From the IMG/VR virus record IMGVR_UViG_2526164613_000026: a stretch of 38,095 nt of DNA. One strand, written 5' to 3'. Source of the stretch: a virus. Lineage: Duplodnaviria > Heunggongvirae > Uroviricota > Caudoviricetes. Position 1 is the first letter of the stretch, and the number at the start of each line of letters is the position of its first letter. Below the pieces are notes generated by a model. That model saw only the letters and a list, made by a program, of their open reading frames with translations, did not search any database and had not been told where the DNA came from. Positions 34,638 through 37,834 of the stretch are shown here, one piece after another. The position numbers and the translations under genes are program-made.

Positions 34638-36029
34638 ATGATAACTTTTAAACCACGTCCCTACCAAGATCTCATCATCAATCATCAAATCGAGACCCTG
34701 CGCGGCAACATCTGGGCAGGGATGGGGATGGGTAAAACCGTAGCGACACTCACCACGCTGGAAGATCTTTTCATGGCTGGAGCAGAAACACGCCCCGCGC
34801 TGGTCCTCGCGCCGCTACGCGTTGCAGCAAGCACTTGGCCTGATGAAGCTGTTAAATGGGGGCATCTGCGTAATATTGAGGTACAGCCGATCATCGGTAA
34901 CGCCAAAGCGCGCTCTACAGCGCTGGCGAACAGCAACGCGAGCGTGTTCACAATCAACTACGATAACCTTGTCTGGCTGGTTGAAGAATTGGGAGAACGA
35001 TGGCCGTTCGGTACTGTCATTCCAGATGAAAGCACCCGGCTAAAATCCTTCCGGCTGCGAGGTGGTGGTAAGCGCGCGGCGGCGCTGGGCAAAGTGGCGC
35101 ACAAGTATGTCCGGCGCTGGATAAATCTCACCGGTACGCCAGCACCGAACGGCCTGGTAGATTTGTGGGGACAATCGTGGTTTGTGGACCAGGGGCAACG
35201 TCTCGGGCGCACTTACGGTGCGTTTACCTCACGCTGGTTCAAATCGATACAGTTTCCGGGGCAGAGCTGGACCAAACTGGAGCCTTTTGCTCACTCACAG
35301 GGTGAAATACAGCGAGCGTTAGCCGATGTGACCCTCTCGCTGGATGCAGCCGACTGGTTCGATATCAAAGACCCCATCCATAACGTAATCCGCGTGGATA
35401 TGCCGCCGAAGGCCCGTCAGCAGTATCGTGAAATGGAAAAGGAAATGTTCCTCGAGCTGAATGGCGAAGGCATCGAAGCACCGAACGCCGCGGCAAAGAC
35501 ACTGAAGTGTCTGCAAATCGCCAGCGGCGCAGTATACACAGATGACACCGGAAGTTGGTCAGAACTGCATGACACCAAACTACAGGCGCTGGACAGCATA
35601 CTGACCGAAGCAGCTGGCGCACCTGTGCTGGTTGCTTATCACTGGAAACACGATCTTGAACGCTTGCTTAAAGCATTTCCTCGCGGTCGTCACCTCGACC
35701 AGGATCCACAGACACTACGTGACTGGAATTCCGGAAAGATTCCTGTTCTCTTTGCACACCCAGCCAGCGCGGGCCACGGTCTGAACATGCAGGACGGCGG
35801 AAACATACTGGTATTTTTCTCACATTGGTGGGACCTGGAGCAGTATCAGCAAATTATTGAACGTATCGGCCCAACCAGACAGATACAGGCCGGACACAAT
35901 CGTCCGGTATTTATTCACCACATTATTGCTGCCGACACTATGGACGAAATGGTGATGGAGCGGCGCAACTCAAAACGAACAGTGCAGGACATCCTGCTCG
36001 ATGCCATGAAAAAGAGAGGTATAGCATGA
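34638..36029 (+). CDS. SNF2/DEAD-like helicase
   Basis: 463 aa. Walker A GMGMGKT, DEAD-like box IPDESTRL, C-terminal helicase domain. Confidence 0.85.
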   Translation: MITFKPRPYQDLIINHQIETLRGNIWAGMGMGKTVATLTTLEDLFMAGAETRPALVLAPLRVAASTWPDEAVKWGHLRNIEVQPIIGNAKARSTALANSNASVFTINYDNLVWLVEELGERWPFGTVIPDESTRLKSFRLRGGGKRAAALGKVAHKYVRRWINLTGTPAPNGLVDLWGQSWFVDQGQRLGRTYGAFTSRWFKSIQFPGQSWTKLEPFAHSQGEIQRALADVTLSLDAADWFDIKDPIHNVIRVDMPPKARQQYREMEKEMFLELNGEGIEAPNAAAKTLKCLQIASGAVYTDDTGSWSELHDTKLQALDSILTEAAGAPVLVAYHWKHDLERLLKAFPRGRHLDQDPQTLRDWNSGKIPVLFAHPASAGHGLNMQDGGNILVFFSHWWDLEQYQQIIERIGPTRQIQAGHNRPVFIHHIIAADTMDEMVMERRNSKRTVQDILLDAMKKRGIA

Positions 36030-36226
36030 GCGAGAAACCCGACGATTTACTCACCCCGGATGAAGTATGCCAAAAGTTAGGTATTACACAGAAAACGCTA
36101 TGTGAGTGGAATATTAAGCATCGTCATCGGGCTATCCTGGCACCAATTCGTTTCAGTGCAAAAGTAGTTCGTTATGAGCGCCGAAATGTCGACGCTTTTA
36201 TTCAAAAATGTCGCAGCCAGTATTAA
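36026..36226 (+). CDS. AlpA/Xis-like excisionase or small HTH regulator
   Basis: 66 aa, ATG overlaps helicase stop. Pattern LLTPDEVCQKLGITQKTLCEW is typical of AlpA-family HTH proteins. Converges on the integrase gene. Confidence 0.65.
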   Translation: MSEKPDDLLTPDEVCQKLGITQKTLCEWNIKHRHRAILAPIRFSAKVVRYERRNVDAFIQKCRSQY

Positions 36227-37620
36227 CCTCGCCGCCGTAGCAATGCCACCTGCGCAAGTATGCTCCGCTCGTGAGCCTCGAAAGCTTCGCGCTTCAACGC
36301 AATCTCTTCCTGTAAAATCTCATCAGAAAAGTCGTAATGTTCTGCCATCGGGTCATCTGACTTGCTGGAGTGGTGAAGGCAAAGGAGGCTGATTTCCCTT
36401 CGGTCTGAGCGGGAATAGCCTCTTTCCTTCATCAAGGCAATAACATTGCTCTTAAGGAATTTACGGCACATCGTATTAAATGCACCGTCTTTCCCTTTAA
36501 CAGTTCCATCATGTTTTATTCCTTTTACAGCCCCGTCCGGGCTGTATGTTTTCACCAGCTTATCCAGTGATCGTTTTGAAAATGGCTGCATTGGATCACG
36601 TGGCTGCAAAAATACATAATCCCTGTTGCACTCAGGAACTGAATCACGCCAGGCTTTCTGCTCGTCGATAATCCGCCGGATCTCAGGCGTTATCGGCAGG
36701 CGGAAAGCCTTTTGTGTTTTCATAGCCCCTCGCATGCCGATAACCCCTTCCGGATAAACAATTTCACCAGCCTCCTCGTGAACGTAGTCCCAGCGCAGGT
36801 TATGGACATTAATCGGACGAACACCAGTGATGATCATGAAGCGAACAGCATTCTTCTGGTGTACAGAGGTGCAGGCAGCAACATTGAGCCAGAGTCGGGC
36901 GATTGATTCAATATCGGTAAAAAGCCGTGTGGGGGTAGGTTTCTGTACGCGGGAGGAAACATAATCATCTGGCAGACTGGCGGCAACATTGCGGCCGTTG
37001 CAAAGAGTAGGTGCGCAGAACTTCCAGAACCGACGGAGCTCGGCAAACAACTCCAGGGCGTTATTGTTCGAGCGAGTGGCGATCCACTCGTCCAGCACTT
37101 CCACCAGCCGACTGTATGTTACGTCGCTGAACACCTCGCGCTCGCCGAACGTTGATTTAATCCGGTCGATACGCACCCCATAGGTTGTGAAACTGTCCGG
37201 GCTCAGCTTCTGACGGGCTACTTTGGCTTTGAGGTCATCCCGGTACATTTCCAGCGCTGCATGTACGGACTCTGCCCGCAGTCCACCGTCAGCCATACCT
37301 AGTGCTTTTTCGCGCGCCAGCTGGATAGCGAGCTCCGGCCACTCGCCGAGCTTTTTACCTTTGAGGCCCATCTTTTTTGGAAACTCGGCGTAAAATGTAA
37401 CCTTACCGGCTTTGCTGAAATCGATACGGAGATAGTTCTCTTTTTCGTATTTGGAACGGCGAGCCACGCCGGAAGCAGCGAGGATGATTTTGGCGGCAGC
37501 AACACAGATTTTCATGTGTGCGCTGGTATAGGGGGGTTTACAGGCGTCCCATTTTTCAGAAGCGGCTAAAACATCGTCATTATTGGGGCTATCCGGATTA
37601 TGTGTTACAGTGCGCGGCAT
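36223..37620 (-). CDS. int: Tyrosine integrase
   Basis: ORF track starts at TTG 37626; ATG at 37620 has AAGGA 7 nt upstream (465 aa). Recombinase-like motifs (MIITGVRP, C-terminal LCLHHSSK...EHYDF). Terminal position next to a host gene. Confidence 0.8.
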   Translation of the reverse strand: MPRTVTHNPDSPNNDDVLAASEKWDACKPPYTSAHMKICVAAAKIILAASGVARRSKYEKENYLRIDFSKAGKVTFYAEFPKKMGLKGKKLGEWPELAIQLAREKALGMADGGLRAESVHAALEMYRDDLKAKVARQKLSPDSFTTYGVRIDRIKSTFGEREVFSDVTYSRLVEVLDEWIATRSNNNALELFAELRRFWKFCAPTLCNGRNVAASLPDDYVSSRVQKPTPTRLFTDIESIARLWLNVAACTSVHQKNAVRFMIITGVRPINVHNLRWDYVHEEAGEIVYPEGVIGMRGAMKTQKAFRLPITPEIRRIIDEQKAWRDSVPECNRDYVFLQPRDPMQPFSKRSLDKLVKTYSPDGAVKGIKHDGTVKGKDGAFNTMCRKFLKSNVIALMKERGYSRSDRREISLLCLHHSSKSDDPMAEHYDFSDEILQEEIALKREAFEAHERSILAQVALLRRRG

Positions 37621-37834
37621 TCTCAATCCTTATCTGCGTAGGCGCAGAAAACAAGCTCACACATACAAGTCTTTTCTACGGGACAAAATGCAATGTGTTG
37701 CGGTTTTGTGTTGCTGGACTGAGTTTATCAAGGTTAAATACACTGGATCAACATACAGTAAGTTAATGACAATAAAGCATACAAACTCGATACAACTTAC
37801 TGATTTTAAAATAATTTAACGGTAATCCATTGAA

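Follow-up and report, generated by a model that had tools for sequence, protein, structure and literature searches.

The window analysed here (38,095 nucleotides, IMG/VR record IMGVR_UViG_2526164613_000026) very probably carries at its right end the integration module of a 41.4-kb prophage of the SOS-inducible type, which lies between yfhH and yfhL and recombines at a core within yfhL. The module is of an ordinary, already known integration type, yfhL has been published before as an insertion site, and the current understanding of site-specific recombination is unchanged by these findings. Over positions 267..38095 the window is 99.99% identical to the genome of E. coli O55:H7 DEC5B, in which the prophage is bounded by yfhH on one side and yfhL on the other; a preliminary description of the window had thus correctly taken it to contain the right (int) end of a prophage. 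The same description held that the att site could not be defined without the left end, but that end is obtainable from public genomes (DEC5B), and the att site is therefore definable. The two att repeat copies, at 37865..37882 in the window and at 43379..43396 in DEC5B locus L001, are 41,393 bp apart.

The prophage is myovirus-like, combining a PolA/VapE/SNF2 replication module with myovirus-type tail genes, and its repressor gene encodes HTH_3 and Peptidase_S24 domains (Pfam). Both left-end cargo proteins (beyond the window) and the 169-aa and 241-aa proteins at 32506 and 33889 are free of Pfam domains. The prophage is related to the GenBank records vB_EcoM-606R2/611R5, whose entries include the host genes tadA-pgpC-yfhH and miss int and xis; these closest whole-phage records lack the int/xis module because they are truncated prophage predictions. 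Public records such as these misplace the limits of the prophage family, whose exact ends are now fixed.

The 18-bp core AATTGTGATATGTGTGAA, whose attR copy occupies 37865..37882, is the only long direct repeat between attL and attR. It forms codons 11-16 of yfhL and encodes part of the first Cys motif of YfhL (NCDMCE). The core is identical in attB (K-12), attL (DEC5B L001 43379-43396), attR (window) and attP; the last is found in two IMG/VR viral contigs that join the window's P arm, the core and the P' arm of DEC5B with contiguous flanking genes, so that all four att forms are seen. The empty K-12 site matches the lysogen's attL as far as the core, and its attR from there on. Among the empty sites surveyed in 5426 complete E. 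coli genomes, the match on the attL side extends to the final core base and no further, and that on the attR side begins at 37845 to 37865. The host-derived rest of yfhL, from codon 17 to the stop (37883..38095, plus strand; Pfam Fer4 families), is 95-98% identical to yfhL in all 5426 genomes. On the evidence of this four-way comparison, the predicted integrase recombines an 18-bp core that lies in the yfhL reading frame, and integration at such a position is intragenic.

The preliminary description had instead expected integration at an intergenic or promoter site, leaving the neighbouring host yfhL untouched and placing the core repeat within 37627..37834. The setting does invite this reading, as int adjoins yfhL without a tRNA and the int-yfhL spacer is AT-rich and non-coding. 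The description had also proposed a search for a direct repeat shared with the left junction, naming a repeat within yfhL as evidence against itself, and a comparison with a prophage-free yfhL. The sole junction repeat is found inside yfhL, none from the spacer is present at the left junction, and homology with empty sites breaks at the core edges within yfhL. Positions 37621..37844 have no homology in the empty-site genomes, and the spacer travels with the phage both in the attP contigs and in Serratia phage vB_SspS_OS31 (MT843276; hereinafter OS31). Integration beside an untouched yfhL is refuted by the four-way att comparison and retains practically no probability. A hidden tRNA or tmRNA target was likewise rejected: the earlier statement that the interval holds no tRNA-like sequence is borne out by ARAGORN, which finds no tRNA or tmRNA in the window, and by Rfam, which gives no match at 35500..38095. 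An inverted-repeat pair of core-type sites was sought around the 18-bp core, and none could be defined.

The segment at 37621..37864 is the P arm of attP carried into attR, and thus phage DNA, as indicated by homology breakpoints, the attP contigs and conservation: it is joined to the other end of the prophage in the IMG/VR contigs and is conserved beside int in 15 sequences. The interval once described as separating int from a host gene, together with the first 30 nt of that supposedly host yfhL, is this P arm. These 30 nt (37835..37864, plus strand) are a phage-borne surrogate yfhL start, consisting of an ATG and codons 2-10, which was recognised by comparison with K-12 and attL and is also found in OS31 phage DNA and in the attP contigs. 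The native YfhL start reads MALLITKKCI, and the phage copy differs from it solely by A2S and K8R (8/10 residues kept, in frame); at the nucleotide level, ~9/30 positions differ from the K-12 and attL copy. Among 15 copies of the surrogate, pairwise codon differences in codons 2-10 comprise 330 synonymous and 136 non-synonymous ones. Since the spacer and yfhL codons 1-10 are phage DNA, the lysogen's yfhL is, judged from these breakpoints, a chimera of a phage-derived start and 5' flank with a host-derived body. The chimeric gene encodes 86 aa in frame with all eight Cys present. At attL, the native yfhL promoter and first 16 codons are kept as an 18-codon stub facing the left-end cargo genes of the prophage.

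Published accounts list yfhL as 'disrupted' or as a plain insertion site (Bobay et al. 2013, PMC3603311; Stx2b prophages, PMC10675304, PMC12029490). Those yfhL prophages, including the Stx2b ones, have the host locus in common with the present one, but here yfhL is seen to be reconstituted in frame, which corrects the view of a disrupted gene to that of a gene rebuilt with a phage-made start. Prophages known to rebuild their target include e14/phage 21 in icd, Gifsy-1 in lepA and phi297 in yecE (PMC4632033, PMC3603311); in icd, the replaced part is the 3' end (PMC3603311). The present prophage resembles them in having its core within a coding sequence and a phage look-alike gene end that keeps the ORF intact, but differs in that the 5' end is replaced (start codon, ribosome-binding region and upstream DNA), so that expression signals are exchanged and not only a coding tail. 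The nearest analogue would be Gifsy-1, whose site lies near the 5' end of lepA.

Integration would set the ferredoxin gene under phage-supplied 5' signals, clade-wide in Gammaproteobacteria, and transcription from the native yfhL promoter would be redirected into the left-end cargo genes. A precedent for an att-adjacent host gene transcribed from phage DNA is the HK022 prophage, in which a phage promoter drives torS of the host (Carey et al. 2019, PMC6814406); the phage-side promoter of the chimeric yfhL is presumed. A generic promoter scan gives no convincing promoter for the chimeric gene, its sole candidate being a weak 9/12 match at 37787..37815. Generic promoter and terminator hits, including this one and a hairpin at 36526..36546 inside int, were rejected, their count not exceeding that in shuffled sequence.

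Upstream of the xis-like gene lies the SNF2-family helicase gene (34638..36029, plus strand; Pfam SNF2-rel_dom, 1.3e-11), the last large gene of the early (pL-like) operon, whose stop overlaps the start of the xis-like HTH gene (66 aa; 36026..36226, plus strand) in ATGA at 36026-36029. The gene for the 465-aa tyrosine integrase (36223..37620, minus strand) converges on the xis-like gene, and the two stops have TTAA at 36223..36226 in common: the plus-strand stop TAA is at 36224-36226 and the minus-strand stop at 36223-36225 (TTA on the plus strand). The overlapping convergence reported earlier is thereby confirmed from the ORFs and the sequence, and the assignment of the pair to int and excisionase-type proteins is correct as far as protein types are predicted from homology and fold (Pfam, PHROGs and structure models). 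The integrase ORF spans 36223..37626 from a TTG and 36223..37620 from the ATG that RefSeq and every homologue use and that yields 465 aa. The 208-bp int-yfhL interval previously given holds for the TTG; counted from the ATG, it is 214 bp (37621..37834). The stop overlap is not due to chance, since the same 4-nt overlap recurs in OS31 and in five genome loci (L005, L007, L008, L012 and L017). Convergence of int and xis had been called unusual, but is a conserved trait of this integration cassette, seen in OS31, the genome loci and Veronia.

The integrase belongs to the tyrosine recombinase superfamily, with catalytic-domain homology and fold and conserved Arg-I, Lys, Arg-II, His-II and Tyr. It matches Pfam Phage_integrase (PF00589) with 30.5 bits against a cut-off of 27.1, in an alignment limited to residues 246-359, and phrog_1 in PHROGs (1.6e-26); OS31 is its sole match among the phage-collection proteins. 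PDB sequence searches with the integrase and with the xis-like protein returned no significant match, and structure prediction was therefore needed. The AF2 model of the integrase (pLDDT 85) contains a beta-sheet at residues 54-94. Its best Foldseek matches are full-length lambda Int structures (1z1b/1z1g/5j0n, E ~1e-8, ~390-400 aligned columns), with a probability of 1.00 against lambda Int, XerA, XerH, Cre and Tn1549 Int. R268, K301, T383-x-x-R386 and H417 do not vary across 27 homologues, down to 33% identity, and at least 90% of these have Y429, which is missing solely from one truncated homologue; these residues were matched to lambda positions via motif context rather than residue-level structural superposition. 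In the whole clade, the His-I of H-x-x-R is replaced by an invariant Thr (T383) three residues before R386, within the motif F-N-T-M-C-R-K-F. The His-I position tolerates substitution in some members of the tyrosine recombinase family, and Thr at this position is therefore compatible with membership.

Predicted structure and site layout together suggest that the integrase is a heterobivalent enzyme of the lambda Int type with a three-domain architecture: the model has an arm-binding-like N-terminus, and repeated candidate arm sites stand on both arms of attP. The candidate arm-type sites P1 and P2, both TGTGTTGC on the plus strand, are located at 37694..37701 (171 bp from the core) and 37707..37714 (13 bp after P1); they are invariant in 15 sequences and kept as TGTGTTAC in Veronia and Thalassotalea. 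Repeats of the form TGTGTT(G/A)(C/T) occur at -171 and -158 in the P arm and at +58 and +70 (direct) and +28 and +116 (inverted) in the P' arm, and would serve as integrase arm-type sites. TGTGTT/AACACA is found six times in 593 bp of attP versus 0.42 per kb in the window, and OS31 carries the corresponding repeat pair at -165 and -152. Read as its reverse complement, ATGTGTGAGC, the near-invariant 10-mer GCTCACACAT (37655..37664) is similar to the arm repeats and to the right half of the core. The 10-mer is conserved in 14/15 column-wise in the 15-sequence alignment, three sequences having G or T at one position, and is present in Veronia (L022) too.

In lambda, the early leftward operon has xis at its distal end, and the gene of the candidate small winged-helix excisionase here is placed likewise; the likeness extends to the three-domain integrase fold with its arm-binding N-terminus and to an attP of several hundred bp with repeated arm sites on either side of a short core. 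Unlike in lambda, int is inverted relative to xis and is therefore not readable from the early operon, with no sib-type retroregulation; Thr replaces the active-site His-I, the candidate excisionase shows a MerR-like HTH_17 fold rather than that of lambda Xis, and the target is the 5' end of a protein-coding gene.

The 66-aa winged-helix protein is a candidate recombination directionality factor (excisionase) of the integrase, as its modelled fold and the gene layout suggest. Its Pfam match to HTH_17 (PF12728) scores 25.8 bits, just below the 27-bit cut-off, and HTH_17 is the sole family reported; Phage_AlpA (PF05930) is not listed at E<=0.01. The earlier label 'AlpA-like' is consequently loose; the AlpA and HTH_17 families have related folds. 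In PHROGs, the best match is phrog_4745 'DNA binding protein' (3.6e-27), followed by phrog_66 and phrog_1553 'excisionase' (7e-6 and 7e-5). The AF2 model (pLDDT 77.5) has a small MerR-like winged-helix fold, and its Foldseek matches comprise Pukovnik Xis (4j2n; TM 0.73, rmsd 1.9), RdfS (8dgl), the GIsul2 excisionase (8c3t) and BldC. A convergent homologue is encoded 0-1 kb from int in OS31, as it is in 11 of the 13 genome loci reaching past the int 3' end, and within ~2 kb of int in Veronia; none is seen within 3 kb of int in Thalassotalea.

It is unlikely that the HTH protein is instead an AlpA/Cox/BldC-type transcription regulator, for example of int or early genes, with directionality supplied elsewhere or unneeded. 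The label of the best PHROG, the sub-threshold HTH_17 score, the top Foldseek match to the transcription factor BldC and the cargo gene between the xis-like gene and int in four enterobacterial relatives and in Veronia would all fit a regulator. The solved excisionases, however, match the model about as well as BldC, and the gene keeps its convergence and closeness to this integrase clade on unrelated phage backbones. Since proteins serving both as excisionase and as regulator are common, the two roles are not mutually exclusive. As a candidate excisionase, the protein would be produced once the S24-type repressor is inactivated, from a gene that ends the early operon and would be translationally coupled.

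The P arm also contains a LexA-box-like palindrome, CACTGGATCAACATACAGTA (CTG-N10-CAG), at 37741..37760. Scored with a matrix derived from 20 E. coli SOS boxes, which themselves score 12.6-27 bits, it reaches 18.4 bits, within the range of the training boxes, and is the best site in the 38-kb window, the next scoring 9.9. The top-scoring P-arm site is 120-123 nt away from the int ATG in 16/17 enterobacterial sequences (16 genome loci and OS31), with scores of 10.7-21.7 bits in these 16 and of at least 12.9 in 15 of them; no such site is present in the Veronia (Vibrionaceae) and Thalassotalea (Alteromonadales) copies. The ACTG of the left half never varies; in the right half, 9/15 sequences have CAG, 5/15 CAC and 1/15 CAA. 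Because int faces the opposite way from the early operon, it would need a promoter of its own in the P arm, and the conserved site provides a simple idea of how such an integrase is switched on at induction. We tentatively propose that the site may place the int promoter under host SOS control, in which case host LexA would directly repress the P-arm promoter from which int is read. For the promoter itself we can only guess at a minus-strand candidate in which TGATAAACT, at ~37722..37730, follows a -35 element located within the LexA-like box; by eye, this candidate can be recognised in only ~9/15 relatives.

There is a nearly even chance that the palindrome instead has an architectural role in the intasome, as a site for excisionase, IHF or Fis or as an inverted Int arm site, and owes its conservation to recombination and not to regulation. 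It sits between the P1/P2 repeats and the core, and the corresponding stretch of lambda attP holds X1, X2, F and H2 (Xis, Fis and IHF sites), so that it could bind something other than LexA. The departures from CAG in the right half (CAC or CAA in 6/15) and the loss of the palindrome from distant relatives that retain the TGTGTT repeats point the same way. Its score in the range of genuine SOS boxes, by far the top one in 38 kb, and its CTG-N10-CAG spacing argue for LexA; the palindrome is, moreover, unlike the phage's own candidate operator palindrome at 25411 and is present on phages with differing immunity regions. Under LexA control, excision would need two SOS inputs, S24 repressor cleavage for xis and LexA cleavage for int. 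The joint scheme, in which a clade-wide yfhL promoter swap and the diversion of the native promoter into cargo genes accompany a LexA-repressed int and two SOS inputs for excision, appears doubtful as a whole.

It is quite unlikely that the prophage is a fixed, defective remnant with an inactive int/xis module and an att repeat that is a historical scar. Two observations would fit a remnant: the YfbU-family accessory gene is frameshifted in the window relative to DEC5B by a single-A deletion at 33282, and attempts to induce the reported Stx2b prophages at yfhL failed (PMC12029490). Against this, neither int nor xis is truncated and every conserved residue is retained, the attL and attR cores are identical, and attP junctions of near-identical elements occur in viral metagenome contigs. 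Strains of O157:H7, which we take to be the sister lineage of O55:H7, show a clean empty site.

The integrase, the convergent HTH gene and the yfhL start recur in OS31 and ~15 enterobacterial loci. The distance between int and the yfhL start is 214-217 bp in 15/17 genome loci, and slightly greater in the partial locus L018. Integrase relatives in Veronia and Thalassotalea also abut yfhL, extending the same target to Vibrionaceae and Alteromonadales. The int/xis/attP cassette is compact and targets one conserved protein gene throughout Enterobacterales; such a cassette could be of use as an integration tool.

OS31 is mitomycin-inducible and has a 23-bp att repeat in a ferredoxin gene (Bujak et al. 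2020, PMC7556043); the available excerpt of that report notes the ferredoxin-gene insertion, and not the gene-start replacement, the arm sites or the LexA-like box (PMC7556043). Its integrase is 76% identical to the present one and its annotated excisionase 70%, with yfhL codons 1-10 ~215 bp upstream of int, TGTGTT repeats and a LexA-like box at the same positions, and the att repeat within a 2x[4Fe-4S] ferredoxin gene. The rest of OS31 is unrelated, being a lambdoid siphovirus rather than a PolA/VapE/SNF2 phage with myovirus-type tail genes. The cores differ as well, with 23 bp in OS31 (TGCATCAACTGCGACATGTGCGA) against 18 bp here, and their sequence tracks host codon usage.

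The last 2.1 kb of the window are 100% identical to the chromosome of E. coli O55:H7 DEC5B (NZ_CP038389.1), from which window 267..38095 differs by one mismatch and three 1-nt gaps. The DEC5B annotation places a ~41 kb prophage between yfhH and yfhL, which neighbour each other in K-12, so the left junction could be obtained from DEC5B (hereinafter designated locus L001), and the attachment site is not undefinable for want of the left end as the preliminary description had held. The sole repeat common to both junctions is an exact 18-bp sequence, AATTGTGATATGTGTGAA, located at window 37865..37882 and at L001 43379..43396, 41,393 bp apart. 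The empty K-12 site equals the left junction up to and including this repeat, and equals the window from the first base of the repeat. Among 5426 complete E. coli genomes, empty sites match positions 1-182 of the left-junction query, the match ending precisely where the repeat ends; matches to the right-junction query begin at 37845 or 37865, the former because the codons just upstream retain residual similarity. A 36-nt probe comprising phage-side codons, core and left-end phage DNA, a combination that only attP can hold, matches two IMG/VR viral contigs exactly. The longer contig joins left-end prophage genes to the P' arm, core and P arm, followed without a break by int, xis and the SNF2 gene. 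With the attB, attL and attR comparison, all four forms of the site are thus observed, and the exchange falls within the 18 bp.

The core corresponds to yfhL codons 11-16, which encode N-C-D-M-C-E within the first cluster-binding Cys motif. The preliminary description had rightly taken this stretch for the end of a prophage carrying an int/xis pair. Its proposed integration into an intergenic or promoter site beside yfhL, with the core in the int-yfhL spacer, gives way to this intragenic position, which it had itself named as contrary evidence: the sole repeat that both junctions share lies inside the gene. Insertion at yfhL has been published (PMC3603311), including that of Stx2b prophages (PMC10675304, PMC12029490), and it is well established that phages can rebuild their target genes with gene ends of their own (PMC4632033).

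Phage DNA at the right end (window 37621..37864) comprises the spacer, an ATG and codons 2-10 of 'yfhL'. The first ten residues of native YfhL are MALLITKKCI, and the surrogate start in the lysogen is phage-encoded, yielding a chimera that retains the reading frame and all eight Cys residues. Across 15 copies, pairwise codon differences are 330 synonymous versus 136 non-synonymous in surrogate codons 2-10 and 242 synonymous versus 0 non-synonymous in the core codons, an excess that indicates, at the level of codon comparison, selection keeping YfhL functional. The listing of yfhL among genes 'disrupted' by prophages (Bobay et al., PMC3603311) is an inaccurate label for the present cassette. 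In HK022, a phage promoter has been shown to drive the neighbouring host gene torS (PMC6814406).

At attL, the native promoter region and the first 16 codons remain as an 18-codon stub, which points into two unannotated cargo genes (88 and 215 aa; L001 42195..43169, outside the window and just inside attL) in the same orientation. Neither protein has a Pfam match. Both genes share the orientation of yfhH and of the stranded yfhL promoter and stub; in the lysogen, host signals could drive their transcription.

The same arrangement recurs in Serratia phage vB_SspS_OS31 (hereinafter OS31), a lambdoid siphovirus unrelated to the present prophage, which has the same int, the convergent 4-nt stop overlap, a yfhL start ~215 bp from int, and that start again carried on phage DNA; its att repeat sits in the ferredoxin gene (PMC7556043). 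Genome loci were collected from Kluyvera, Citrobacter, Shimwellia, Sodalis, Pantoea, Symbiopectobacterium, Providencia, Serratia, Erwinia, Shigella and others. The yfhL start lies 214-217 bp from int in 15 of 17; one of the remaining two is partial, with yfhL slightly further off, and the other lacks yfhL within reach. Integrases of Thalassotalea and Veronia, only 44-68% identical, also adjoin an 84-aa Fer4 gene. Within E. coli, the int side is present in 160 of 5426 complete genomes and the present P' arm in 128. By this sequence comparison, the int/xis/yfhL-start unit is a portable cassette with a fixed target. The literature on yfhL insertion, OS31 and gene reconstitution yielded neither the exact E. 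coli core nor a demonstration that the replaced part is the 5' end of yfhL with its start codon and upstream DNA. Nor did it yield a map of the arm sites, an account of how widely the integrase clade keeps to this target, or the LexA-like site described below. The feature belongs to a known class of systems and is ordinary within it, apart from a few details of modest interest.

Pfam recognizes only the first half of the integrase catalytic domain (residues 246-359; 30.5 bits against a cut-off of 27.1), and PDB sequence searches found nothing. An AlphaFold2 model built on 27 homologues (mean pLDDT 85) best matches full-length lambda integrase (1z1b, 1z1g and 5j0n; E ~1e-8 over ~390-400 aligned columns), followed by Xer, Tn1549, integron and Cre recombinases. 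Even in homologues with as little as 33% identity, R268, K301, R386 and H417 do not vary, and Y429 is missing only from one truncated sequence. Tyrosine recombinases usually carry H-x-x-R around the second arginine; here residues 382-387 (window ~36460..36477, minus strand) lie in a clade-wide F-N-T-M-C-R-K-F, with an invariant Thr at the position of the first catalytic His.

As would be expected for an arm-binding integrase, repeats of TGTGTT(G/A)(C/T) occur in the P arm at -171 (37694-37701) and -158 (37707-37714); counting from the core, the P' arm has them at +58 and +70 and, inverted, at +28 and +116. These six in 593 bp of attP compare with a window-wide 0.42 per kb. The P-arm pair does not vary among 15 sequences, even Veronia and Thalassotalea keep it, and OS31 attP has the same layout. 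Besides these repeats, GCTCACACAT is a candidate Int contact sequence.

The xis-like ORF (66 codons, 36026..36226, plus strand) and int (minus strand, ending at 36223) converge with overlapping stops, as previously described: TTAA is common to the plus-strand TAA (36224-36226) and the minus-strand stop (TTA on the plus strand, 36223-36225). The int ATG at 37620, used by RefSeq and all homologues in preference to an alternative TTG at 37626, gives the 465-aa product already reported and leaves 214 bp to the annotated yfhL start (37835). The claim that this spacer lacks a tRNA also holds, no tRNA, tmRNA or Rfam family being found in or near it. A small palindrome, TCTGCG-TAGG-CGCAGA (37633..37648), directly precedes the int ribosome-binding site; the closest relatives keep only parts of it, and more distant ones do not conserve it.

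The xis-like gene is the last of a plus-strand early block starting downstream of an HTH_3/Peptidase_S24 repressor gene, and its start codon and the stop codon of the preceding SNF2 helicase gene overlap (ATGA, 36026-36029). The protein falls just below the Pfam HTH_17 cut-off, its PHROGs matches are annotated 'DNA binding protein' and 'excisionase', and the annotated excisionase of OS31 is 70% identical to it. Its model (pLDDT 77.5) matches BldC, mycobacteriophage Pukovnik Xis, RdfS and GIsul2 excisionase, and a putative excisionase is the best reading. The HTH gene is convergent with int in 11 of the 13 loci extending past the int 3' end, with stops overlapping in five. Four loci carry a 0.5-1 kb cargo gene between the two; the junction genes of relatives (L004 5501..5881, L006 5475..6389, L010 5409..6122 and the Veronia locus L022 4513..6237) differ from one another, are co-oriented with int and have no counterpart in the window. 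Their products are a 126-aa protein with, by eye, a signal-peptide-like N-terminus, unknowns of 304 and 237 aa, and a KAP-family NTPase (Veronia). The junction looks like an insertion hot spot for morons or defence genes. On the xis strand, 300 nt into int antisense, TACAGCCCCGTCCGGGCTGTA (36526..36546) resembles a terminator, a hairpin with a T-rich run behind it; read-through from the early operon might end there. Such sites were no more numerous in the scan than in shuffled sequence.

Since int would be unreadable from the early operon and would require its own P-arm promoter, a LexA-repressed int promoter is an attractive model. Scored with a matrix from 20 E. coli SOS boxes (which themselves score 12.6-27), CACTGGATCAACATACAGTA at 37741..37760 is the top site in the window at 18.4 bits, the runner-up scoring 9.9. 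Among 17 enterobacterial sequences (16 genome loci and OS31), 16 have their best P-arm site 120-123 nt from the int ATG (10.7-21.7 bits), 15 of them scoring at least 12.9 bits. The left half-site alone is invariant, the right half being CAC or CAA in 6 of 15 relatives, and the Veronia and Thalassotalea copies lack the box. We propose a LexA site here tentatively, at somewhat less than an even chance; the element could equally be an architectural site of the intasome. A palindrome unrelated in sequence to this box, TAATGTGGGTATACACATTA (25411..25430), lies between the divergent S24 repressor gene (25404..26078, plus strand) and the cro-like and VapE genes (minus strand), and is likely the phage repressor operator.

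Elsewhere in the prophage, window 1..286 matches L001 41213..41498 in the orientation opposite to the remainder, which is collinear in reverse, so the window has its Pin-type invertible tail-fibre segment turned the other way. The switch point TTCTCCCAAACCAAGGTTT (~267..286) resembles a crossover site of the Gin/Pin/Cin type, and the only substitution relative to DEC5B (C/T at 274) falls within it; the invertase gene pinE lies just outside the window. Single-A deletions relative to DEC5B occur at 21511, 21547 and 33282, all in A6/A7 runs; that at 33282 breaks a YfbU-family gene (33021..33572) into three short ORFs and could be either a homopolymer sequencing error or a real frameshift.

Three 'complete genome' records of Escherichia phages vB_EcoM-606R2/611R5/689R2 (ON470579.1, ON470588.1 and ON470582.1) represent the same prophage type, with 98% identity over window 13000..36029. 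ON470579.1 runs from host tadA, pgpC and yfhH to the SNF2 gene, without xis, int or the right att site, and by its gene content at least this record is wrongly delimited; the match of the other two ends at the same point. A 241-aa ORF (33889..34614, minus strand), multi-pass membrane-like by eye, lies antisense within the early plus-strand operon near a 169-aa ORF (32506..33015, plus strand), neither with a Pfam match. ON470579.1 carries a TIR-like domain gene in this neighbourhood, which marks it as a variable cargo region, possibly defence-related.
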